Assembly (NCBI GenBank): GCA_963575745.1
Contig: CAUYUJ010000116.1
Location: 1-64,000 of the forward strand
Direction of reading: 5' to 3'
Length of the DNA stretch: 64,000 nt
Origin: Prorocentrum cordatum
Lineage: Eukaryota
Shown here: positions 1,296 through 55,700 of the stretch, piece by piece
Layout of the letters: every line of letters starts with the position of its first letter
How positions within the stretch are numbered: position 1 is the first letter of the stretch
Position numbers and translations under genes: made by a program
Notes under the pieces: generated by a model
What the model saw: the letters and a program-made list of their open reading frames with translations, nothing else
What the model was told of the DNA's origin: nothing
Databases searched by the model: none

Positions 1296-4200
1296 TCATG
1301 TGGCAGCACGCCCAGTACGCCGTGCCCTGAACTGTCGTGCAACACCAGTATACCGACGAGCCAGAAGACGCAATCGTGCCACGAAGACCTGGGACGAGGG
1401 GACCTGTGTCAAACGTCGATGATGGGCGTGCGTCTTAAGACATGCATCGATGAAGGCAGCACAGGCAACGTCGCGGTCGAGCCCCCAGGAAGGTCCCATC
1501 AGACATAGACAGGTAAGCCAGGTGTCACGGTGCTGCCACATCTCCCTCCACGGCGTGGGTAATGCTTCCAACCCAGGGAGACGGTGCAGTGCAAGGTCAC
1601 GGAATCCATCGCAGATTTTATAATGGTGAAGGTCATCGGGGGCCACACGCCCAAAGCAGAACCCACGGTCATTCGCATGAAATCGTGCCGGAGTACAAAC
1701 GCCCCTGGACAGTGCACGTAGAACGTTGGTAGCCAGATGGGTGCACGCGGCACGCTCCACTGCGCGCAATATTGTCCGCAGGCGGAACATATCCTCAGGA
1801 GATGCAGCAACTGACCACCTCGATACCCGTACACTCAGACACAACAAGGGAGTGGCAGCCATACGAACCGACCGTAAGTGCCTATGGACCTTGGCCTGGA
1901 TAAGCCGGGCAGTTCGACCAATTGGAGAGTTCGCGAGGTCCGCAGCATCCTCATTCGTCGTGCGCATCATCGAATGGCACCACCACCCAGGGAACATACG
2001 GGCAGGGATAAATTCATCATCAGCCAAGCCACTAGATAAGCCATCTAACTCATACGGCGCCACATCTAATGCCTTGCACCGCACTATCACCCGGAATTTC
2101 GTAGCTTCATCGTGCAGTCCCAGGTCCACGAATTCAAGCGAGATCCCAAGGTCACGTAACTGGGTGAGCATAGTGTAGTTCAACGCGTGCCGAGGTCCCG
2201 CTGTTAGTATCTGCAATGCTTCCCTGTACTGACGACGAACCCCTGGGGTGACCCTCGCCAGCTGAATCCGATACTGCAAGACTGAGAGGCAATGAGAGTG
2301 GAACATGCGGGTGGTGGTCGCCAAGCCCAGCGAGAGAGAGAGCGAAGAAGACGAGATCGCTGCCAGAACTTATCCATCGTTTCCACCCAAGCCACCTCAT
2401 GGGCCGAAGGGCCCACCCAGAATCCGAGGTGCAAAACTCTGGTGGCGAAACGAACTGATGCGAAACGGCTGCATTTCCGAGTCATGTGAGCAGCGAGGGC
2501 ATCTCCACTCAACGCCCCGCAGATCAGGACGCAGCATTTCCCCACATTCAATGAGAGACCAATCGCGGAAGAGAGCAAGTCAAGAAGCAGCCGGGCGGGC
2601 ATGAGATCGATGAGAATGTCACATAGACCAAAGCAGCAGTCATCAGCGCACGCCAATTGCATACCTACCCGTTCGACGCGGCGGGGACGGATCCAGCGCA
2701 GTACGGGGTCCACGGCCAGTGCAAAGAGGGCCATAGACGCAGGGCCCCCCTGCCGTGCACCCCGTTCCACAGGGAAAACAGTTTCGGCAGCGCCCTCAAA
2801 GCAAACCGGGGCCGCGTTGTTGGCGCATAGGGCTTTGAAGAAGCCCACGGTCTCACTGGGGGCCCCCATGGCCACCAAAACGGCAACAATCCACTCAGCC
2901 AGGATCGAAGGGGACGCCGCCTTGAAGTCGGCAAACAAGGCCCCCGCCTTATCTCTCCCACACATGCGCTGGATAAGGCCCCATCTTTCTACTTCCACGA
3001 CATTGTCTAGAATGTTACGCCCACGAACCCCACCACGCTGGGAGACCCCCACTGTCTCAGGAGCGACGTCGTTGAGCCCCAGACAGAAGGCATCGGAGAG
3101 CATCTTCGCATCCGCATTCGCCAGGGAGAGCGGGCGGGTGGAGGCAGGTGCACGAGAGACAAGTCGCTGCGATCCCTGGGGTCGCTGCCCTTCGGGAGGA
3201 ACACCATCCGACTAACCCGACATTCAAAAGGGAGAGCCCCTCCTCCACTGTTGAAAACCTCATCGTAAACCTCGAATAACGCATCGGTCGCCTCGGGGAC
3301 CTTCCAGCACCCATACGGGATCCCGTCAGGGCCAGGAGCAGAATGAAACTTATGGCCGACACGGCCCCGAAACTCATCCGCGTCAAGTTTCCACCGTGGG
3401 GCAGTAGTACAGCCGCCAATAGTCTGAACATGGGTCAGTATTTCTTCCCAATGAGTCGGGCCGTAATCAACCCGCGCAATAACCTTACTCCAATGGGCAA
3501 CCAGTGCCGCAGAAGCCGCTTCTGGGGAGGCACACGGGGTCCCGCTCTCGTCCAGAACGCCTTGCAGCCCAGTCCTCCTCCTCATGAGATCCCACCCACG
3601 CCTAAAAGCAACCTGCCTCCGCCTCTTCTTGGCCCTGACCTCCTCCACTTGGTTGCTATGACCCACCTCCTCCAATTCCGCATCAAACCAGCGCCCCTTC
3701 AAGGTTAGTGCCAAACTGTCGAGGCCATCAGGATCAGCGCGCACTCCGCCGTCGACGTCGAAGAAAGGCAGGAGAGAGGCGTAGCAACGGATGGCGCCAA
3801 GACAGAGATGTCACTGCCGACCCCTCCGCCCACGGTATGCCATGAATGCAAAGTGTAGCCGTTCCGCATCCTTGTCCGCTGGCCGACACTTAAGGGTCTT
3901 CTTAAATTCCACAGCTGCCGTACCAAACACTTCTTTCACCCTCGCGAGTTTCTGAGCGGGGCCCGATGGGAGCGTAAGCTCCCGCAGCTGTTCGGAAACC
4001 AGTATGTGGTAGTCGGCATGCTGGCTGATCCATTTCGGAACCGAGAAACGACCCTTCGGGGTCGGGAGGGAAACCGCGGCAGCCGCGGGAATGTGATCGG
4101 AGGAGGCCCCTGGATGCATGAGGGCGCCGACAGCGTTGACAACAACGGTCATCTCATTGAGAATACCTGCAGGAAGGGTCGTGTAAACCCGATCTAACCT

Positions 4201-5058
4201 GGCCAGCCCCCTCAGTTCCCGATTCACAATATACCTTCTGGTCGGGTCGGGTTGGTACAATTCACACCAGTGGCCACAATGCTCCTGAAAAGCATCACAT
4301 TGCAAACGGTCCCCAGGCCCAACCTCCCCGGATACAAGAGACCGGCCATCCTCCATCGTACAGAAGTTCCAGTCTCCCAGAATGAAAACCATGGTACGCG
4401 CTGCCGCAGGAAGATCGGCACTGATGAGGCGTAAGTACTGATGATAGATACGAACGTCATCGCACGTGTTAGGCATATGAACATTGACCACTACCAAGTC
4501 GCATCGAGGTCCCCGACAATGGACAAGTAACACTCGCCCAGGAACGACCGTGCTCCGAGCGATCGAGTCGAAGCAGTCACAGAGTTCCGAAGACAGGGAG
4601 GCGACCACTCCCCCCGCGTTTCGATCCTCCAGAAAGCACCCAAAAAATTGCCCAGTCTGCATTTCGTCCCGAAGGATAACCAAGTCTGCTTCAGATCCGT
4701 GCGTCTCCTGTAAACACATGACCTGATACTGTGAGAGCAGCTGCTTGGCCCGAAGGAAGCGCGAACGTGACCGAGATGAGCGAGACGAGAGAGAGGCGAA
4801 GAGCGCGCGCGTGTTCCAACTGCAGAGAGACAGCGGACGGGCAGGACGGTAGATGCCACCAGCTTCCCCAGCAGGCGGCGAGAAGGATAGAGCACTGTCA
4901 CTTGCATGGGGTGCATCAAACTGGGCGGAGAGGGCGGACGAGCACTCAGTAGTAGAACCCACTGGACTTCCCCCCGCCGCACACTCACCTGTCGAACTGT
5001 CCGGATACTCACCGAAAGGAGCGGATCTCTGCGAACCTGGCGTGCAGGCACTGCGCAT
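1296..5058 (-). pseudogene. LINE ORF2: APE endonuclease, reverse transcriptase and C-terminal domain, broken into 4 frames
   Basis: APE motifs SWNTRAL, CLQETH, GDWN, RLDRVY, SDHIP (3811..5058). RT motifs APGPDGIP and VFLPKG (3007..3744), then DFKAA, GARQGGPAS, ACADD, LSLNVGKC, HLGF (2204..3103). Cys/His-containing C-terminus (1296..2324). The YADD motif reads CADD. Confidence 0.92.
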
Positions 5059-6098
5059 GCTGCTGCCCTCCCACTTCCGTCAACCAATCAATCTCGACGC
5101 CACGCTGCACTGTACCCGCGGCTGGGCCATCATCAACAATAGAAATCTTAACCACAGGCGCAGGGACTCCGTTGTCCTTCATCACATACACTGCACCGCC
5201 TAGCCCCGTGGACCCCACTTTGTCCGCCCCGAAGATTCTGGAGACATGCTGTCGCATATTCCCGAGGTAGTAGAACAACTTTCTCGAAGAGGGGGGAAGA
5301 TCGCGTCGGGCCCGTAGCTGTAAGTCGGGCCCGCTCTCAGGGTTCGGGAAAGGGAACGTGCCCACGGACGACGCCATCCCATGGAACGTTGTGGTCTCTA
5401 GGTTGGAATCAAAACCCAGGGAATACTTTCTTACTGCAATCGAAGGCCTTGACATGGATCGAACCCTGAGACGAGGACGGAGCACAGCGGGAGATGATGC
5501 TTTGGGCGGCTTCACGGAGCGTTTTCTCCATCAGCGGCCTTGGAAATCCAAGAACCACAAGACGCGAGGGGTTCCCCACAAGCCCAGACTCAATCTTCCG
5601 ACGGACTTGCCTTTCTTCTTCCCCACGAGGTGTCGGGGACCCAAGCCCGACGACTTTCTGAATATCCTGGATCTCGTCACGCATCGTCTGGATCATTCTT
5701 TTGAGCTCATCCCGAAGGGCAGATTCAGCGGTCTCACGGTCCTGGATGCGTTGCAAGAGGGCCCGTTCGTGGATCGCACGCATCTGCTCGAAATTCGATG
5801 CTGTCTGCTTTGCCAGTTCCGCGCGTGCCTGCTGAAGTGTCTGGAAATTCTTCTCGGCTGCGATCATCTGACCCTGGATTCCCGAGATCTGTTGGTTTAT
5901 CTCTTGCACCCCACGATTCACCTGACTGGATAAGCTGGCGACCGACGACGACAGAGGAGCGATCATGTCATGCATGGCAGCGGGGATCTTATCGGTGTCC
6001 CTCACTCCCTCCATGGTCGTACCTCCAGGGGAAGCAGGCGGAGTGGAGGCTGGCGGAGTGGTGGCAATCGATTCAGGCCAGCTATCTTCAGACGGCAT
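5009..6098 (-). pseudogene. LINE ORF1 (coiled coil plus putative RRM-like region), one frameshift near 5430
   Basis: ATG at 6098 (MPSEDSW...). Heptad-rich segment VASLSSQVNRGVQEINQQISGIQGQM...ELKRMIQTMRDEIQDIQ followed by RLVVLGFP. Continues in ORF 5009..5515 to a stop that overlaps the ORF2 start. Confidence 0.75.
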
Positions 6099-6239
6099 GG
6101 CCAGGGAGGGGAGGAAGGCGCGGCCGCGGCGGGCCGAGGAGGAGCGGCCCCGCGGGGCCAGGGGAGCGCGTCCGCTCCCGGCCTTGGTGCCTGGCCACCA
6201 GGCGCCTCGAGCGAGGTTGGGAAGTTCAGGAGAAGGCCC

Positions 6240-6254
6240 CTTGAGCCAAAATGG
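6240..6254 (-). other. Relict spliced leader (15-nt 3' part)
   Basis: Minus strand reads CCATTTTGGCTCAAG directly after the full SL, exactly the part of the SL downstream of its internal AG. Confidence 0.95.
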
Positions 6255-6277
6255 CTTGAGCCAAAAATGGCTACGGA
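6255..6277 (-). other. Full-length dinoflagellate spliced leader (DinoSL) copy, with one extra T
   Basis: Minus strand reads TCCGTAGCCATTTTTGGCTCAAG versus the established DinoSL DCCGTAGCCATTTTGGCTCAAG. Confidence 0.95.
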
Positions 6278-6432
6278 TGACGAGGACGACGATGACGAGG
6301 ACGAGGAGGACGACGGGGACGACGACTGGGACGACGACGACGAAGTGGACGACGAGGACGAGGAAGATGACGAGGACGACCACGACGACGACCACAAGGA
6401 CAACGAGGACGAGGAGGACGAGGACAACGACG
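6278..6432. repeat. GAC/GAG trinucleotide low-complexity tract (right LINE flank)
   Basis: Direct reading. Confidence 0.9.
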
Positions 6433-7229
6433 GGCACCACTTCCGCCCAGACTCGATCCCCGGACCGCTCCCGAGGACCACGGTGGCAAAGTTTTTGTTT
6501 TGCAATCCGCGTATCCAGCCGTGGCGACGAGAACCTCCCAAACAGCACCCTCACGAACCTCAATGAAAAGTTCCCCAAACAGTGCCTACACTGAAAGGGT
6601 CCCAGCGGAAATTGAAAGATGTGGCGAACATTGCCCGCCGATTTTGGTGGCCGGCTGGGTTCCGGGGTTCCCGGTTTTTGGTTTCCTTGTTCCTGTGGTC
6701 ATTGGTTCCGGTCCGATTTAAGTATGCTCTGGGTTCCCGGGTTCCTGGTCGATCTCCTTGTCGATCTCTCTATCGATCCCATTTCAAACCATCCAGTGAT
6801 TGGGGCTTCTCTCTGGTGTAATGTAGGAGGGCGCGCCGCTGGATGTCCCCAAAGGGGGAGGGGGGGAACCCTTCCCTCCCCCTCCCCTTTCCCCGATCCG
6901 TCGTCGGGGGACCCCCCCCCTCCCCTTCCAGGTCCGTCGTCGGGGAACCCCCCCCTCCCCTTCCCCCCCTTACCGGTCCGTCGTCGGGGACCCCCCCTCC
7001 CCGCCTCCCCCCTTTAAAATGGGGGGGGGTCCGAATCACCCCCCTCCTTTGGCCGCCAAATTCGACCCCCCCCCCCCCCTCACTCCCTTCGGCCCTGGCG
7101 CCCCCTGGCTGCGGAACCCTCCCCGTGCCACCCCGAACGCTAATCCTCATCCATAACCCTAGCCCCTAATCAAAACATCAAGCCCAAACCTTAGCCCCAA
7201 GCCCCTAATCAAAACATCAAAACAAAACA

Positions 7230-17962: not shown

Positions 17963-18173
17963 TGGTGCGCCTGTTTTCCACCGCCACCACCAGGAAGTAT
18001 GAAGGGGAAGGGGGCCTCCTCCTCCTCCTCCATCCTCGAAATCCAAAGAAAACCCCGACCCTATCTCCTCCAGATCCTCCCTCCCGATCGTCCTCCTCCT
18101 CGTCCTCCTCCTCCTCCTCCTCCTCCTCCTTCCCCCCTCCAACTCATGGTGGTGGTGGAAAGCAGGCCCATGA
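17963..18173. mobile_element. MITE family B (introner-type), degenerate copy
   Basis: TIRs GCCTGTTTTCCACC / GGTGGAAAGCAGGCCCATGA around a CCT core; no TSD discernible. Confidence 0.7.
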
Positions 18174-22340: not shown

Positions 22341-23756
22341 TGTTCATCCGTGTTCGGGACACCCACTCCGTTTTGAACTCTTCACAACATCGAAATGTTG
22401 AAATATGTGGGCATGCGCGATGGACTTCGCGCGCGCGTACTTCGTCCCATTGGTTTGCAAGGGGGTTGTTGGAAACTATTGATTTGGAATGATCGAATGT
22501 ATACGGGATGGTGCGGGGTCGAACTTGGTCTGGCTCGGGCGGTATGCATTCTTATTTCGGATGGACGATGGGGCAAAATCATATGACAATTGCACTGCGA
22601 ATTGACGGTTAGATAATTCTGCCCTCGGGGGGGGGGGTGAGAGACCCCGATTTTTGGGGGGAGGCGAATCTATGAGAGGCGGCGACGGGGCGGCGACGGC
22701 GAGCACACACCCGCAGGCCCAGACGACGAGCGGCGGCGAGGCGGCGACGCGGCGGCGACAGCAAGCACGTTGCCGCCAGACCGGCCCGCAGGCCCAGACG
22801 ACGGGCGGCGACGAGGCGGCGACGGGGCGGCGACGGCGAGCACAGAGCTTCCAGACCGACCGGCAGGCCGAGTCTCTGGAAGTGAGAACATACATGAGAA
22901 CCTCCTCAGAAACAGACAGCGCGCCACAGGAAACCGAGCTAAAGGAGGGGGTGCCCCCCCTCAGCTCCCCCCCCCTTCAACCCCCCCAACCGGCCCTCTC
23001 CTCCCCTTTTGTTCGAGTTCCAGAGACTACCCCCGCCCTACCCCCATTCAGCTCCCCTACCAGACCACCCCCCTCTGCCCCCCATCCCACTGCGACCCCT
23101 GCAAGCTACTCCCCCTCTCTTTGACCTCCCCGGTCCGAAGACGCCACCCCCCCTCCCCCCCTTGCTTTTCGCCCCACGGAAGCTGCCCCCACTAGGAGCC
23201 GAAAGGGGGAGGGGGGTCTGGCTGTCGAACAACCCCATCTTCCCCCCCTCTGCAGCCGAGGAGGTGGGGGGGACGCTTCCGAAGCCCCTCGTTGCAAAGA
23301 TGCTCCTTGGCATACACCAGCTTCGAAATAAGGGGGGCTTCCGAAGCCCCCCCCAACCCTTTTCAGAGGAGGGCCTGGGCTTCCCAAAGGGAGGGGGGTA
23401 GATTCGAAAGCCCCCCTCCTGTTTGAAAGAAGAGGGTAGCTTGAAGCTGCCCCCAACCCTTCACTATTCCCGCCTCCAGAAGCCAACCCTTTCATATGTA
23501 CATATACAACGGTCCTATGCGTATGCATCTATACCTGTAACTCTGTACACAAACATCTCGTTGCATGCCCCTGTATGTATGAAGCTGGATACATACGTAT
23601 ACGCCTATGTAAATATTAGTCTACGCTCGCAGTGGCCGAGCATACAACTGTTTCCCGAGTGCGGCTGCGCACTCTCGGGTCGACCCCGCTGGGCTCCGCC
23701 GAGAGGCCACCTTAAGCTCTGGCAGAAGTAGCTCAACGTTCAACCCCTTCTAACAT

Positions 23757-23920
23757 TGATGGGCCCATTTTCCACCACCACCACCACCACCACCATATGT
23801 AGGAGAGGGGAGAGGAGGAGGAGGAGGAGATGGAGGAGGAGGAGGAGGAGGAGGAGGAGGAGGAGGAGGACCCCCTCCCCATCCAACTTATGGTGGTGGC
23901 GGTGGAAAGCAAGCCCTTCT
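23757..23920. mobile_element. MITE family B (introner-type), copy with 5-bp TSD AACAT
   Basis: TGATGGGCCCATTTTCCACCACC...GGTGGAAAGCAAGCCCTTCT around a (GGA)n core; AACAT at 23752-23756 and 23921-23925. Confidence 0.8.
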
Positions 23921-26489
23921 AACATGACCCTCTGCCTCTGAAGCTGGTCTGCCCACGAGAAAAAAAAAAGAAAAAAAAAAAAAAAAAAGGAGGGGCCAGG
24001 GCCGGCCGCGGGGCCATCACGGCCCGAGTCCCGCCCAACAGCTGCACGCCCTCCTCTCGCAGGCCTCGCCCCGGAGGAGGAGGAGGAGGAGGAGGAGGAG
24101 GAGGAGGGACACCGCCAACGAAAACTTGAACAGGGACCGACGGTCCCAGGATTCCTAGTTAGTCCTGCCACGAAGTGTTCTTCGAACCCAGAAACAAACA
24201 AAAAAAACGCTCTTGCAACATAAGCCCGACGTGCTAAAACAAGAAAGTATCAACCAGAAATGTTCTAAGACTATTTCGTGCCCGTGAACCCACCCGCCAT
24301 CCGGGCGTACGCGGTGGAGTGTCAAAGCCCTTCCGCCCCCCATCTTTCCAATTCGGGGGGACGGCCACCACTGCTCCTTGATAATAAACACCCTCTCCAA
24401 CAATGGACAGGCCGGCAGCCAAGACCCGTGCCAGCACTGAGGAGGGGGAGGGGGGAGGGGGAGGGACGGGGGGTGGGAGAAGGGGGAGGGGGGAAGGGGA
24501 AGGATGTGGGGGAGAGGGGTGGGGGGAAAGGGGTGGGGGAAGAGAGGGGTAAATGGCAAGCCATGTGCGCTCACGCCATATCCGACATCCTACCCCTCCC
24601 ACTCATCCCTTCCCATTGCGCTGGTTTGTCTCTATCCGGCGATGGCTGTCATAGCGGACATGGAACCCCCAAGATAACCGCACCTCTTCGTGTGGAACCA
24701 GAACCGGGGAGATGTGTACATTGGAAGGAGAAGCGGAGGTGGCGGATGAGCATGAGGATGAGCAGGAAGATGAGGATGAGGAAGGAGTAGGAGGAACAGA
24801 AACAGCAGAAGCAAGAACACGACGAGCACCAGGAACGGAAGGACCACGGGAAGGCGGAGGAGATAGGAGGGGGGCGATAACCTCGATGAAAGACTCTGAT
24901 CCAGAAATGTTTCCCCGCCGAGTAGACAACGCCATTCTGAACGACGGGGGGACAAGGGTGATCCTGAAGAGAGGCCACGCCTGCGACGGGAACACCCGTT
25001 CCAAAACCGAACGGAAGAACAACGCCTCGATCGAACCGCACCACGAATTCAATCGTTGGCTGAATACTGATCCGTGACTGTACGGTATGCGGGACAACAA
25101 AGTGCTCCCGTCCAGGCAGAGCATCTGGGAACATATGACTGCAGCGGATATCCATATGCATCTACATTTGTACACACATGTATACAGATTCGCATCTGGA
25201 ATAACAGCTGGGGAGAGGGCGATGGGAGGAAGGGTGGGAGAGGGCGGGGGAGAGGATGGCGGGCGGGAGGATGGCTGGGCGGGGGGGGATGGGGGGAGGG
25301 ATGGAGTTGGGAGGCGGGGAGGCACGGCCGAGGGGGGAGATTCTGGAGGGACAGAGGGAGGAATGGGGAGAGGGCGGGAGGGGCGGGAAGGGGATGGTTC
25401 GGGGATGGACAGACCCCCCTTTAGTAAAACGTGGTTTAGTGAAAACGACCTGAGGTCCAAACCTGGCGGGCGCAAGCCTGGAAAATAACGGTCACGGCGC
25501 CCTCTCGAGAACCGAAAACGAACACTTCACTAATCGACGTGTCACTGTTGGGGGTTCTGTCCACCCCCGAAAGGTGGTGGGGGGGGGATGGCGGGGGCGG
25601 GGGGGGGGGGGATGGAGTGGGGAGGCGGGAAGGCACGGTCGAGGGTTGGAGGGCGGTCATACACACGAGAGAAGCAAAGCATGTATCCTCAGGGCGCAGG
25701 GAGCAAGGACCCCACATGGCGTGGGGGGGCTGGGGAGGGGGGGGATGGTGAGGGGAGAGGGCACGGTATAGGGGGGGGGGTCGGCAAGAACAACTCAAGG
25801 AAGAGAACATTTTCCGACAGGATGCAGAGAACAGGATCCTCCAGTCTAAGGCTGGGCGGGTTCAACCTACCCAGCTAGTCGCGGTCCTATGCGCACATCA
25901 GCTATCGCGGCACAGGAGGCCCACAGGAGAGGGGGTTGAGAAGAAGGGGAAAGCGAGGGGAGGGAGATGAAGACGGGGAGTGGTAAGGTCGCGGAGGGAG
26001 AGCGGGGATGGAGCACGAGATCACGAGCGCGAAACCACAGAGCCCCAGACTACCACCTGTCTCAGAGAAGGCACGACGGTCTAAGGAAATGGGGATACAG
26101 CATCAGAGTTTCTCCTCACTTTCTCAGAGTGGTGGAGCCTCTAGAAATGTGGCTTCCTAGCTTTCCACGTGCGCGCGGGCACCACTTCTTCTCGACGCCG
26201 GCGCACGTCAGCAGAAGCGAGATCGGGACACTCAAAGGTTCGGGGTCCTCTTTGGGGTCCCACATCTGGACGGAACAGCCGCGTCCACCAAAAACGCCAA
26301 CCGCAACATCCCCAAGTGAGCGTTTTTCCCTACCTAGGCTCTGCCTAGAAGGGTTCTTACTCGGTTTGCTTACAAGGGCCGGGCAGTGCTACGCGCCCCG
26401 GGCGGTTCCCCCGGTCCCCTGGGAGCAAGCAAAAAGAACAGCAAAGGTAAAAACAAACGCGCGGTTCCCCCAGTGGCGCTCTCTGGGTG

Positions 26490-49957: not shown

Positions 49958-50087
49958 CTTCCCTCGAGTTCACATGCCTGGGCCTCCCCGGGGGCCTCGT
50001 CGCCACAACCGGATCCACTTCAAGATCCTGGCCAGAACGCATCACTGGAGAGGTCCGTGGGGCAGCGGCCTAAATACGCGATTGCTC

Positions 50088-51188
50088 CCTCGAGTCCGTT
50101 GGATTGTCGCAGCCGTGGCCGTACATCCGCGAGACGGTCTTAACTCCAAATTTGCCACCCGAGCTGGCTGAGTACCTCCTGGAGTTCCTGCCTGGAACCA
50201 GAGTCGGAATCGTTTCTGTGACGTAGGACAACGGAACTGGCGTATCGTTTACGACCGTGTCAAACTCATACAACTCCATATCGAAATCGATGTCACCGTC
50301 GACTGTGTAGACTGCGCTTACCCCGTCGAGGTACAATACCTCGTTCTCCCCATCCTTGTAATGGTCGATGTCACAAAACGTGATCTTTGGCAGGATCGGC
50401 TTCTCGGGGCAGAAAGTGTGGTTTCTCACGAACTCCCCTCTGAGAGTGGCGAATTCCCCAATAAGGAGATTCACAGTCGCCTGGGCCCCGCTTATCGTGT
50501 TCCATTGGGTGTTCCTGGGGACATACGCGCTCGTGTTGACAAAGACGATGTCGACGTTCACACCATTAGAAAGCTTGCCGACTCCATAGTATCTCAGCTC
50601 TTTGGGCTTATGGAATTCTGGACCAAGTCCAGCAAGATTTGAATGGGATGCCCTCCCGAAGCCATCCTCATTCGAATCCGCAAAGTGGATCCAATCCTCA
50701 CACCCTTCAGGATTATCAAGTGTCTCGCTCTCTTTGCACTCTTCTGGACAGACGCAGCACATTGTTCTGGAGGTGAAATCGTCATCGTCATAATAAGGGT
50801 CCATGCAAATACCTGTATAGGGCTCATCAGGATCGTGCGAATATACTTCGCACGAGTGACCAAACCTGTTCGTGGCCCCATTGGCTGTATCTACACAGGT
50901 CGGCGTCGTGACTGGTTCTGACTGCGTGGCGACACGACGGCTGCGTCGCAAATCGGCGTAACGCTCCGCCCGCGTCATCGTTCGATTACTTCGCGAACGA
51001 AGGGCATGATGCTGCAGGCCACCTTGATCTTCGTGCGATACGTCCACTGAGGCCTGCAACAAAAACGAATCCAAGCATCCGACATGTTCACACGTATGTA
51101 ATTGATGGTGTGTGCCCCTGGCCATGGCGCCAGCGTCACACAAGAAGTATAGGGTGAGTAGGGTGAGTGAGACCAAAGACATTGTCAT
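50088..51188 (-). CDS. Secreted modular protein, first exon: signal peptide, Cys-rich module, core domain
   Basis: 372-aa non-repetitive ORF; hydrophobic N-terminus MTMSLVSLTLLTLYFLCDAGA; CVDTANGATNRFGHSC...YDDDDFTSRTMCCVC; HSNLAGLGP...DID...GCDNPTD. Confidence 0.88.
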
Positions 51189-51613
51189 CTGGCCTGGGCG
51201 TTCAGTATCTGGTCAAGCTGGCTCGACCATCAAGGTGCATGAGTGCCCGCAAGGATGTTGGGCAGAGGGACGGCTATGAAAAAGGAAGGCGAGGAGACTG
51301 CGCAGAGCTGCGAAGAGAAGGAAAAGGGGGGGGGATGAGGACGAGGCGGCGGAGGAAGACGACGACGAGGACAGCAATGACGACATCGGCCACGAGGCAG
51401 GAGGAGCAGCAGCAACAACAGGAGCAGAACAGTCGGAGTCCGAGCAGGAGGAGACGAGAAGTCATTCCGAGCAGGTTGGGGCATTCAGGGGGGCATTTGT
51501 CTCGTGCCTCGCCTCTGCGGCATGACCGGCCAAGAACAGCAGGAGCGATCTGCGCATGCTGGCTGGAGGGCCATGAAGGGCGGAAAGAAAAGCAGGGCGA
51601 CGAGTCCCCAGAG

Positions 51614-51761
51614 TTAGGTCGAGCATGACCGCCTACAGGCGGCTTCTGGAACGAAGAATTTAACAGAAACAAGAAATGCTACAAAACGCTCGAAATCGTC
51701 CCCTGACTATTTTTTGACTATTTTTGAACATTCCCCCTCTAGAATGACAGGCCCGACTGAA
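51614..51761. mobile_element. MITE family A, copy 6 (intergenic)
   Basis: TIRs; perfect TSD CCCCAGAG. Confidence 0.85.
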
Positions 51762-51906
51762 CCCCAGAGCCGATGGCACACACTGCCGCACAAATGCATG
51801 TCAGACAGCGCAAGAGGAGCCCCCCGACCGCTTTCCTTTGGGGGGGGCCTCGCCAGCCGACGCCTCTGCCTGGTTAGACCCTGAGGGCCCGCGTCCGGCA
51901 GGGCTG

Positions 51907-51975
51907 TCAGATGATCTCCATCCTGGCGGTGTGGTAGAACATGCTGATCCTCCGCGTGTCCCACAGCCGCCTCAC
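51907..51975 (-). CDS. JmjC/cupin-like protein, last exon (VRRLWDTRRISMFYHTARMEII*)
   Basis: CAG acceptor, phase 0, high GC3, TGA stop. Confidence 0.8.
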   Translation of the reverse strand: MRRLWDTRRISMFYHTARMEII

Positions 51976-51976
51976 C

Positions 51977-52138
51977 TGATAGGCCTGTTTTCCACCACCT
52001 CCACCACCAAAAATTGGAGGGGGAGGGGGTCCTCTTCCTCCTCCTCCTCCTCCACTTCCTCCTCCTCCTCCTCCTCCTCCTCGTCCTCCTCCTCCTTGCC
52101 CCTCCAACTTATGTTGGTGGTGGAAAACAAGCCCATCA
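51977..52138. mobile_element. MITE family B acting as an introner (intron 51976-52142)
   Basis: 23-bp TIRs with 2 mismatches; 5-bp TSD TCACC (51972-51976, 52139-52143); the GT...AG intron equals the element plus one TSD. Confidence 0.9.
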
Positions 52139-52142
52139 TCAC

Positions 52143-52409
52143 CGTCCTCACCCAGACGCTGCGTGCGGCCAGCACGTCCCGGTCGCCCCGCGCGAACATG
52201 TTCGCGGCGCGGTTCCAGCCCATGCGGCCAAACTTCGGCTCGAAGAACGCGTTGATCCCGACACGGTGCACGTCGCGATTGACGACTCTGTGCTTTGCCC
52301 CGCTGGGGATGACGACGCCCTGGCCGGGCCCGAGCTCCAGGTGGAAAAAAGGCGCTCTTGGCGTCCCGAATGGCATGCTATTGGTGGCCCACTTGATCAG
52401 TCCGGCGTC
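52143..52409 (-). CDS. JmjC/cupin-like protein exon with the distal His (LELGPGQGVVIPSGAKHRV...VGINAFF)
   Basis: Matches the JmjC L-x-PG-x-x-x-x-IP-x-G-x-x-H-x-V motif; in phase with both neighbouring exons. Confidence 0.88.
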
Positions 52410-52733
52410 CTCGTGGACTCATTGTTCCAGGGGAAGGAGGGGGTCAGAGGCAGCAGGACGACTGACTCGGCGATGCCCCCGTGGAAACACTGGGCCACCT
52501 CAAATGCCGCAAACACACCACACCCCACTTTTGCATTATTCGCGATAACGCACGTGACTTGCCCTGCCCCCTCTGGTCACGTCGCGGTTCGCGTTGGCGC
52601 CGTCTGGGCGTGAGCTATTCTTAAGCATTCCCAGACGGCGCCGGCGCGAATGGCGACGTGACCCCCATCCTTCCCCCTCGGTCACTTCAGTTACCGCCGG
52701 GGGAGAAAGACGGTCTCATTGAAGTGAGGCGTC

Positions 52734-52797
52734 CTCGTGGATCTTGGGGCACAGCAGGAAAGAGCAGTTCGGCGGGAACACGAGCACGTCGACCCGC
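52734..52797 (-). CDS. JmjC/cupin-like protein exon (RVDVLVFPPNCSFLLCPKIHE)
   Basis: CAG acceptor in phase 2, matching the 58243 donor; GAG|GA donor; supplies the expected ...LxFPP segment. Confidence 0.8.
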
Positions 52798-55700
52798 CTG
52801 GTAGACTATGAAGGATAAGTTGGCAGCGAGTACAGCAGGGACCCGATCACAAAAACCTTCCACAAAAAAAAACAACCCCGAGATCCCAACAGTGTCCACT
52901 CGTTTTTGGTGCGGGAGAGTCACGCTCTCCATGGCAAAACCATCGAAGCCCAAAAAGCCCAGGGCACCCTGGAGGCAAGCAGGGTGTTTCTTGGCATGCG
53001 TGCGCGGCAAGCATGAGCACCGCGAAAACCTTGAGGAAATCCAGAAAACCTCGCGGCAAACATATTGCGCCGCGCCCTCGTCAACGCCATGCACGAGTGG
53101 AAGAATAGCGGGGCCCATCTCGAGCATAACGCATGAAAGATGAAAAACCCCGCGGCCTGCAAGACACCGCGCGCCGCCACTGGGCCAGCACAAAAATGAC
53201 GAACGGCATGAGGTCTGAATGCTTAGACTGCAAATTTGATTCCCACCCGCCCCCTTAACAAGGAAGGAGCTGGAGCAGGGAAACCCACCCCGACCCCTCA
53301 AAGATGAAGGCGCCCAATGTTCATTGGAATGCGGGTACCGCTGCTAGCCAGCGTGAACACAACAGCAAGGTAAGGCGCAGAGGTATTACAACGCATGTGA
53401 TGCAAGCTACGTGGCGCAAGCTAGATGGCGCAAGCTACGTGGTGCCATTCATTTCTGCCAACTGATGGTCCCACTGCTCGCGCGATCATGCCACCGTCGT
53501 GCCCGCAACTAGGTTTGCAAACCGCGCGCGGCGGCGATTGTGATGCGCGTTTCGTCGCGGCGCATCTCTGCGGCCGCGCTGGCGCGCGCGAGCCCGAGCG
53601 CAGAGCCGCCAGCTGGTTTGGCGCAGCCGACGCGGCCGCGATGGCACTCACCGATGGCAGCGCCTCAGCGCTTGTCAAAGGCACCGCCCGCGCGCGGGCA
53701 TTACAATGCGGCTCGGTGTTTCGGGCGGGCGCGGTATCATGATGACCCCATCAGCAGCGGCAACGAAGATGATGATGCCCATGACGCCAGCGACCATGAC
53801 AACGACGACTGCCAGGCCAATGACGTCGCAAATGCTAATCGCGCCGGCGACAAAAATGATGACGTTTACGTGTCGAACATGAGGAACATTGAGCGATGAT
53901 GGCGGCAAACGCGATGCGGCGGCGCCACTTAGGGTCGCGATGAGGAAATGCGCGCGTGCGAGAACCCGAGAATTCCGGCAAACTTGCTGGAAAACATACG
54001 CAACCTCACGCATGTTGGAAGAACTGCATTCTGAAACGCATCGAGCACCAAGGGTGTACTCCCGTGGCGGCGTGAGCGCGTGGCCCACGCGGTGGTTTGT
54101 GATGCGGACTCGCGCGCTGGACTCAGGCTGGGCCAACGCGGATGCACCGCGCGGTTAGATCAGAGTGAAGGTCACGAACGAGATGCGCGAAGGATTCCTT
54201 CGCATCTCAGCAAATGCGCGCGGGCAAAACGATTGCAAGATCTGCGGTTGAAAACCGAATGGCGTTTGAAAACACCGGTGGGATCGTTGCCGAACCGGCG
54301 TGCTTGACCTGATTTCGACGTGTGCGCGCGCGGACGCTGTGGTATTGGGCGTGCAAGGGAAACCACAAGGGCATCGCTTGCGATGAACAAACGCACCTAC
54401 TACTGTTTGACGAAAGTGGCGGGGGAGGGACGGCGATCGCTGGCGCGCCTGGCCCCGCATGGACCGTCGCGGGCAATCAACTGCCAGGAACAGGCGTGCG
54501 CAACTTGCAATGTCACAGGGGGCGTCGATACGTCCAGGGGTGTCTTCTTTTGAAGCAGCACTATGTATGCGATGAGAATTACGCGGCGCTGCGAATTCTT
54601 CCCAACCAATGACTCGTCGACCCCACCGCTCGCTCAAAAATCCCACCCTCACACCCGCAACGTCTTTCGCAAAACCTCTACGGCCGCGAATGCGGCGACT
54701 ACTCGGCTGCGGCTGGCGCAACTCTGTGGCCGCGCTGGCGCGCGCAAGCTCCAGCGCAGAGAGGCCAGCTGGTTTGGCGCAGCCGACGCGGCCGCGATGG
54801 CGTTTATCGATGGCGACCCCCCTTTGGCGTCAAGAGCACCGCCGGCGCGCGGGCACCTCAGCGCGGGTCGGTGAGTCGCGCGAGCGCGGCTTCATGATGT
54901 CGCCGAGAAGGGCGGTGACAGTGGTGATAGTAGCAGCGGCGGGAGCGATTTTATTGGAGAGAAGCGCTAACGAGGATAACTCGTTGATCTCGGGAGAACA
55001 AGAGATTGCGAAGCCCGTCGCAGAGAGCACGTCTCTCGCGAGACCCCGCACGGGGGCGACGCTCGATGAGCGATGCGCAGGGAGGCGAGCAAGCCAGAGA
55101 GCGGGGGGATTATCCACGCAGACAAAATTCTGCTCACTCATCTGCAGCGAAAAAGGCCTCGTGAAAATCAAGGGGCTCAGGGGCGGGAGGCCGCTGCGTG
55201 TCACGCGCCGGTCTGGTCGCGCACATCGCGGCGGCGGAGCGCGAGGGGCAAGCCTCAGCGCTGCGCGCGCTGGGGAAGGAGACGAGGGCGAGGGTCTGGG
55301 CGGCACCTGGGTCGGAGTCGACATTGGGATCACCTCGCCACGCACTGACATTAGAAGCCGGTGTCCAGCGTCGCCAGCCAAGGCCCAGCGCCGTCCTCGA
55401 GCCGGTCGGCTGGGGCCAATCCGACATGATGGGCCACCTCGCCTTCGGATTTGAAGGCCCGCGCGATCAATACCCTGCCCTCCCACTCGGGAGCTCCAGG
55501 GACGGGCTTCATCTTCTCCGTGCCGCGGCAATTCACAAGCCGTGCGAAGCTGATCTTGTCGTCGTGGACGCCCTCGTCGGGCTGGCTGGTCGCGCGCGGG
55601 CGCTCGCCGATCTCGAATTCGCGCGGCCCTCCAGGGTCGCGAGGTCCAAGCTGGGCGCCGAGGAGCCGATGTTCTTCATCCTCGGTCTGTCCTCCGCCGA

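Follow-up and report, generated by a model that had tools for sequence, protein, structure and literature searches.

An inverted-repeat transposon with a microsatellite core very probably created an exactly spliced intron in a dinoflagellate cupin-like gene

The DNA analyzed here (the window) is a stretch of 64 kb with a G+C content of about 52-65%. Its minus strand carries the last two coding exons of a cupin-like gene, separated by an intron of 167 nt that is taken up almost entirely by a short repeated element, which we call copy A. A second intron of the same gene (intron 2) precedes the penultimate coding exon (Table 1). Upstream of the element, the minus-strand frame reads ..RAPFFHLELGPGQGVVIPSGAKHRVVNRDVHRVGINAFFEPKF..DVLAARSVWVRT, and downstream it reads VRRLWDTRRISMFYHTARMEII and then a stop codon, with the exon frames ..WVRT and VRRLW.. 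flanking the intron. The designation "cupin-like" is a loose label, since the Pfam scores stay below the curated cut-off: the exon alone gave cupin matches that were all sub-threshold, and a homologue of 222 aa (P0001) matched Cupin_8 with E = 3.3e-5, below that cut-off. Directly downstream of the gene and on the same strand lies an uninterrupted ORF of 380 aa (50073-51212). It has 14 relatives with 38-66% identity, and all the named ones are from Prorocentrum cordatum (51-62%). PF04886 is present in several of these relatives, and the source of one gives it the name cellulase. No protein identical to the 380-aa ORF is on record.

Table 1. Positions of the host gene features, of copy A and its parts, and of the two other element copies in the window
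Feature	Position	Strand	Basis or remark
Penultimate coding exon, cupin-like gene, ..RAPFFHLELGPGQGVVIPSGAKHRVV..SVWVRT	52143..52409	-	upstream boundary according to the GA..AG reading of intron 2
Last exon, coding part, VRRLWDTRRISMFYHTARMEII + stop codon	51907..51975	-	translation, contigs
Intron, 167 nt, phase 0, GT..AG	51976..52142	-	contig joints in four runs; cut enumeration
Intron 2, same gene, 324 nt, GA..AG	52410..52733	-	contig joints; frame enumeration
Copy A, non-autonomous TIR element, 162 bp	51977..52138	-	inverted-repeat search, alignment with copies B and C
TIR 5' arm of copy A (gene sense), TGATGGGCTTGTTTTCCACCACC	52116..52138	-	inverted-repeat search
TIR 3' arm of copy A, GGTGGTGGAAAACAGGCCTATCA; last A = A of the AG acceptor	51977..51999	-	inverted-repeat search
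Microsatellite core of copy A, (TCC)22 on the plus strand = (GGA)n in the transcript	52030..52096	-	Tandem Repeats Finder
TSD of copy A, upstream copy GGTGA; first G = exon end, GT = donor	52139..52143	-	
TSD of copy A, downstream copy GGTGA; first G completes the AG acceptor, GTGA opens the last exon	51972..51976	-	
Copy B	17963..18173	+	more diverged; 48-nt insert in the core; without TSD (2/5 flank bases match)
Copy C	23752..23925 (element 23757-23920)	+	TSD AACAT at 23752-23756 and 23921-23925

Read directly, the minus strand from 52150 to 51965 is ...TGAGGACG/GTGA-TGATGGGCTTGTTTTCCACCACC...(GGA)n...GGTGGTGGAAAACAGGCCTATCA-G/GTGAGGCGG..., the slashes marking the exon boundaries. An inverted-repeat search revealed terminal inverted repeats (TIRs) of 23 nt that are 91% complementary (21/23) as well as a second, subterminal inverted pair with arms of 30 nt (80%). 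Together, they make copy A palindromic over arms of about 50 nt, which enclose a non-palindromic core of 22.3 TCC copies with 87% matches. A perfect target-site duplication (TSD) of 5 bp (GGTGA on the minus strand, 5/5) abuts the TIR termini on both sides, and these termini were set independently by alignment with the two other copies found in the window. At 162 bp, copy A has no coding capacity. The intron is composed of 4 nt of the first TSD copy, the element itself and 1 nt of the second TSD copy. That leaves 4 nt on one side and 1 nt on the other between the termini of the element and the splice sites, and the intron is coextensive with a repeated element. The original prediction, made from the DNA letters, had described a TIR element with a microsatellite core and a 5-bp TSD GGTGA that supplies the GT donor, the AG acceptor being formed by the last A of the element and a G of the TSD; the anatomy found here agrees with this description in each part.

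We then turned to transcripts. Twenty sequencing runs contained part of region 51700-52800. None of them held at least half of the words of this region, and the best value, about 0.4, is what exon-only sequence would give. Contigs of four runs from four studies (X1, X5, X13 and X15) were aligned to 51600-53600. Poly(A) RNA is the recorded source of run X15; for X1, X5 and X13, no library kind is recorded, and they leave the introns uncovered as transcriptomes do. The uncovered parts of the aligned stretch, namely, the introns and the upstream region, were kept out of the evidence. Each of the four runs yielded one contig (902, 720, 804 and 1017 nt) that matched without a single mismatch, joined position 51971 to position 52139 and skipped 167 nt. 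This joint has 5 ambiguous letters and hence six equivalent cuts, only one of which (CT..AC at cut +4, corresponding to GT..AG on the minus strand) has canonical ends. It removes 51976-52142, leaving the junction 52143/51975 in phase 0. Beyond the coding part, the contigs run on as 3' UTR at least to 51840. Both the junction and the intron length, given in the original prediction as the 162 nt of the element plus 5, are therefore reproduced by the contigs of all four runs. Being assembled, these contigs establish that the spliced form exists; splicing efficiency, retained forms and minor isoforms are beyond their reach.

The target region contains the motif GGTGAGG twice, 9 nt apart (52152-52144, minus strand). 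The upstream one offers a stronger-looking donor, G/GTGAGG, with its GT at 52151-52150, i.e., 9 nt upstream of the donor in use, and splicing from it would remove three codons in frame. The contigs show the exact junction only and not this upstream donor, minor isoforms being outside their resolution.

The RNA of the 167-nt intron folds into a hairpin of -71.45 kcal/mol (z = -7.43), and none of 200 shuffled sequences folded as well. Its unpaired ends are 4 nt (5') and 1 nt (3') long, which places the two splice sites side by side.

The protein encoded by the spliced form was compared with its homologues. P0001 aligned through residue 199 to the first part of the gene product with 53% identity and from residue 201 to its last residue to the downstream exon with 64% identity, the two exons abutting at adjacent columns of P0001. 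A search of 1.84 billion representatives with P0001 gave 114 relatives, and an alignment was made of P0001 and the last 100 residues of the best 26 of these 114. No gap interrupts any of the 26 at the junction, which falls within the conserved motif ..LW[VL]....LWDT..., and all share an identical C-terminal end point. The spliced product is colinear with each of them, in line with the expectation that WVRT-VRRLW would be restored without a scar. Left unspliced, the frame would continue through the element for 56 unrelated residues and stop in the second GGTGA, so that the conserved C terminus would be lost.

The contigs that skip the 167-nt intron also skip the 324 nt of intron 2, here with 14 ambiguous letters. 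A perfect 14-nt direct repeat, TCCACGAGGACGCC, is present on both flanks of intron 2 (19 nt at 89%, within 52404-52741). Because of this, its boundaries slide over 15 frames, of which only GA..AG (52410-52733) combines a 5' G with a 3' AG; one other frame is TC..AG. This 14-nt duplication would be compatible with insertion by a retroelement-type process or with the "identically repeated intron boundaries" described in dinoflagellates. We considered intron 2 as a second member of the family of copy A and rejected it, as it is without a terminal inverted repeat and has no other copy in the window. It does contain an internal palindrome with 34-nt arms (52575-52663), nested in an inverted pair of 14-17 nt. 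Farther upstream, the summed contig depth of each of the four runs is very high (up to 2518, in X1) over about 60 nt of the large upstream intron (52940-52998), and many different contigs continue from there into similar loose ends, ..GGCCTCCACTGTA... Apparently, this segment is a short repeat carried by many transcripts. No second copy of it is found in the window, and Rfam gave no match.

At the other end of the window, a tandem spliced-leader relic, CTCAAG-CCATTTTGGCTCAAG, is located at 6240-6260 (minus strand). It shows 3 mismatches to the 21-nt sequence that we take to be the spliced-leader motif, with a chance expectation of 0.00. The relic suggests a retroposed, trans-spliced mRNA near an ORF of 429 aa (5412-6698, minus strand), beside a LINE. 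In addition, the GA donor of intron 2 is dinoflagellate-like according to the available portions of published work (Roy et al., bioRxiv 10.1101/2020.10.14.339549; PMC11453091). With the spliced-leader relic, the GA..AG ends of the neighboring intron and the Prorocentrum-named relatives of the neighboring ORF, the premise of the original prediction that the DNA comes from a dinoflagellate holds.

Given these data, could the contigs stem from an allele or paralogue in which the element had never inserted, with the copy in the window being a disrupted, unspliced pseudogene? Dinoflagellate genes are often multi-copy, the library kind of three of the four runs is unrecorded, and no DNA run containing the locus was found, no run holding half or more of its words; all three points leave room for such an empty site. 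However, the same contigs are also without the unrelated 324-nt intron, so that the putative source would have to lack two independent insertions at once. Moreover, they match the window without a mismatch throughout the exons and for 104 nt or more of the 3' UTR, the runs leave introns uncovered in the manner of transcriptomes (X15 being poly(A) RNA), and a canonical GT..AG is present in precisely the frame that restores the protein. We therefore consider this explanation improbable.

That copy A entered, or replaced the interior of, an older intron that it did not create is a second explanation, and MITEs commonly land in existing introns. However, nothing other than the element and 5 nt is found inside the intron. 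Furthermore, both splice sites lie in the TSD or at the boundary between TSD and element, and the TSD is perfect and directly adjacent to the TIR termini. Because the intron holds nothing but the element and 5 nt of TSD, transposition is the likely origin of the intron itself, and we regard an older intron at this position as very improbable.

To place copy A in a family, we searched the window for its termini. The 23-mer TIR, with up to 3 mismatches allowed, gave four matches against 0.00 expected by chance, and a degenerate form of the TIR gave six; the chance expectation for TIR matches was 0.00-0.01. These matches correspond to three elements, copies A, B and C, with copy B being the most diverged of them. 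Brought into one orientation, the three have in common the termini TGAT...ATCA, a TCC core, the run TTTTCCACC(A/G)CCACCACC and the subterminal pair TTGGAGGGG/CCCCTCCAA. In total, about 50 nt of terminal and subterminal sequence are shared, and the flanks are unrelated. Two of the three copies are bordered by a 5-bp TSD that differs in sequence, GGTGA for copy A (minus strand) and AACAT for copy C. A TSD of constant length and variable sequence is a hallmark of cut-and-paste DNA transposons.

Among the 15 GGA/TCC arrays of the window, inverted repeats flank only those of copies A, B and C (z = 10.2, 7.3 and 9.5, with z = 4.0 for the next best array). The family is thus defined by its inverted repeat and not by its microsatellite. 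The twelve other arrays (at 13.4-15.4, 30.4-30.8, 49.6-49.8 and 58.3-58.7 kb, among others) comprise up to 73 units each, and some lie within long low-complexity ORFs. Although GGA/TCC arrays are this common, a palindrome that arose in place around an expanding GGA microsatellite, without any mobility, is hardly credible, given that only 3 of the 15 arrays have inverted repeats, that three copies at unrelated sites share their terminal and subterminal sequence and that two of these have flanking 5-bp duplications of different sequence.

One of the three copies in the window, copy A, is a demonstrated intron. The TSD of copy C is unable to give splice sites, and neither copy B nor copy C could be spliced through its flanks. 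The direct repeat flanking copy C is 12 nt long in its extended form, CCCTTCTAACAT (23745-23756 and 23914-23925), and takes in the final 7 nt of the right TIR, which ends in ..CCCTTCT as opposed to ..CCCATCA. Either the TSD is the 5-bp AACAT and a mutated terminus happens to match, or it measures 9 bp and the TIR is truncated by 4 nt.

Of the 289 window ORFs that reach 110 aa, 54 with a length of about 200 aa or more were scanned with Pfam, which detected no DNA transposase. It detected a LINE only, with RVT_1 at 2207-3211 and Exo_endo_phos at 3814-5079, both on the minus strand. Rfam gave no match at gathering score over the whole window.

The family extends beyond the window. In runs X1, X5, X13 and X15, transcript contigs with three other flanks match the element. 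Two of these flanks were searched for in the window and are absent from it, indicating that further family copies exist and are present in RNA assemblies. An alternative isoform of the host gene was rejected as the origin of these two loose-end strings, since their absence from the window assigns them to other loci. In one of these further copies, which X1 and X15 both contain, the 6-nt flank GGTGAG is the same as in copy A, and the sequences part beyond it. As a single locus, it is a hint that the element may prefer certain targets or that donor-like flanks are selected for.

We also searched public metagenome and viral collections with an 18-nt degenerate TIR pattern and obtained at least 119 metagenome stretches and 16 viral stretches. 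None of the 135 loci among the matches listed had the TIR in both orientations. The best look-alike among them (L032) was rejected, as by our own reading it sits in a bacterial ABC-ATPase-like reading frame. Since we estimate a few hundred chance matches to an 18-nt pattern, this search makes no statement on the family outside this genome.

Taken together, these data make it very probable that copy A is an introner, that is, that the insertion of a MITE created an exactly spliced intron from its own TSD in a dinoflagellate cupin-like gene. In the sequence of events that we propose, a non-autonomous TIR transposon of 162 bp would have inserted into the coding sequence ...ACG GTG AGG... and duplicated its target GGTGA. 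Positions 2 and 3 of the upstream TSD copy provide the GT donor (G/GTGA), and the terminal A of the element forms the AG acceptor with the first G of the downstream TSD copy. The spliceosome takes out the element together with 5 nt, 167 nt in phase 0, and restores exactly the frame that preceded the insertion. Removal of the element and one TSD copy implies the pre-insertion sequence ...AGG ACG GTG AGG CGG..., the uninterrupted empty site being ...ACGGTGAGGCGG.... Transposition would accordingly have made the intron, as opposed to the element having landed in an older one, and copy A was presumably moved by a transposase encoded elsewhere. The long TIR hairpin may aid splicing by bringing the splice sites together. 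We infer the gain of the intron, and its age, from the anatomy of the element alone.

A splice-competent flank is by itself not decisive, since by our own calculation an element with T...A termini and a random 5-bp target would give GT..AG by chance in about 4% of cases and G-H..AG in about 9%. With such termini, it can be derived that the targets GGHNN (the one seen here), AGGHN, NAGGH and NNAGG would all give G-H..AG in either orientation; for NNAGG, the last G and the first T of the element would form the GT donor. The original prediction had gone further and proposed that any exonic target beginning with GG(T/C/A) would serve in either orientation, so that the family could give rise to introns prolifically. 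The symmetry of the termini (T...A) in the three-copy consensus would permit this, but in the window one copy of three is such an intron.

The creation of introns by a transposon, with splice sites drawn from its TSD and its own sequence, is a known mechanism, and copy A is a new example of it. The algal introners of Micromonas and Aureococcus, reportedly described by Huff et al. in 2016, belong to another lineage and are not known to have sequence similarity to copy A. Closer to our case are the dinoflagellate introners of Roy et al., a later version of whose work is said to have appeared in Curr Biol in 2023. In the available portions of the preprint, these introners have TIRs and TSDs of 3, 4, 5 or 8 nt, their splice sites lie within the TSD, within the element or across the boundary between the two, and duplication of the donor is given as the origin of the exonic G-H that follows the acceptor (Roy et al., bioRxiv 10.1101/2020.10.14.339549). 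As far as these portions go, copy A resembles the introners of Polarella glacialis and Symbiodinium in being a non-autonomous TIR element with a short TSD, recruited splice sites and exact removal. Class 12 of Roy et al. is described there as having a 5-nt TSD, the frames NAGGH / NNAGG and an initial C in the element (bioRxiv 10.1101/2020.10.14.339549). Copies A and C share the 5-nt TSD with this class, for which the comparison is with a description only, but the frame of copy A is GGTGA (GGHNN) and its element starts with T. Neither a microsatellite core nor arms about 50 nt long are mentioned in the same portions of Roy et al.

Other studies define "introner elements" by pattern, which the sections available describe as hairpin-forming, with inverted repeats (8-20 nt) and direct repeats (3-5 nt) located no more than 30 nt from the ends of the intron (Farhat 2021, PMC7789003; Dougan 2023, PMC10666404). 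By this pattern, 2.4% of the introns of Prorocentrum cordatum were flagged, according to the section concerned (Dougan 2023, PMC10666404). The intron formed by copy A fits the definition as worded there: a perfect 14-nt run within the TIR lies 14 nt from the 5' end of the intron, and the direct repeat, of 5 nt, overlaps both boundaries. What these studies define is, however, a pattern and not a sequence family, and their available sections describe no P. cordatum consensus, copy inventory or splice-frame analysis. Hairpins are proposed there to bring splice sites together in Amoebophrya (Farhat 2021, PMC7789003). Unlike most Amoebophrya cases in that account (PMC7789003), copy A has canonical GT..AG splice sites.

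The same range of splice-site recruitment is found in the accessible text of Gozashti et al. (2022, PMC9860276), where MITE-like elements co-opt a splice site from the TSD and leave the mRNA length unchanged. Two surveys by Gozashti et al., one of them PMC9860276, removed candidate families dominated by low complexity or simple repeats, and Prorocentrum is unmentioned in the parts available. An element built like copy A could have been removed by such a filter. In the literature on introners and Prorocentrum, we found no published description of this TIR family with a microsatellite core, and a search with the 12-nt TIR core returned four papers, all on unrelated vertebrate topics as judged by titles and abstract openings. 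Introners with a microsatellite core may be a blind spot, under-counted by surveys that filter low-complexity families. We tentatively raise, as possible but rather unlikely, that the family is a dedicated introner missed by surveys that discard microsatellite-rich candidates, able to use all four frames in either orientation and perhaps with a preference for GGTGAG-like targets. If so, many of the variable-length introns of dinoflagellate genomes that are large and G+C-rich could be due to it.

In copy A, the element supplies no complete splice site of its own. This arrangement leaves the picture of how introners work unchanged. It adds to this picture a transcript-supported and base-exact case in which a transposon very probably created an intron, in a dinoflagellate genome that is large and rich in G+C.
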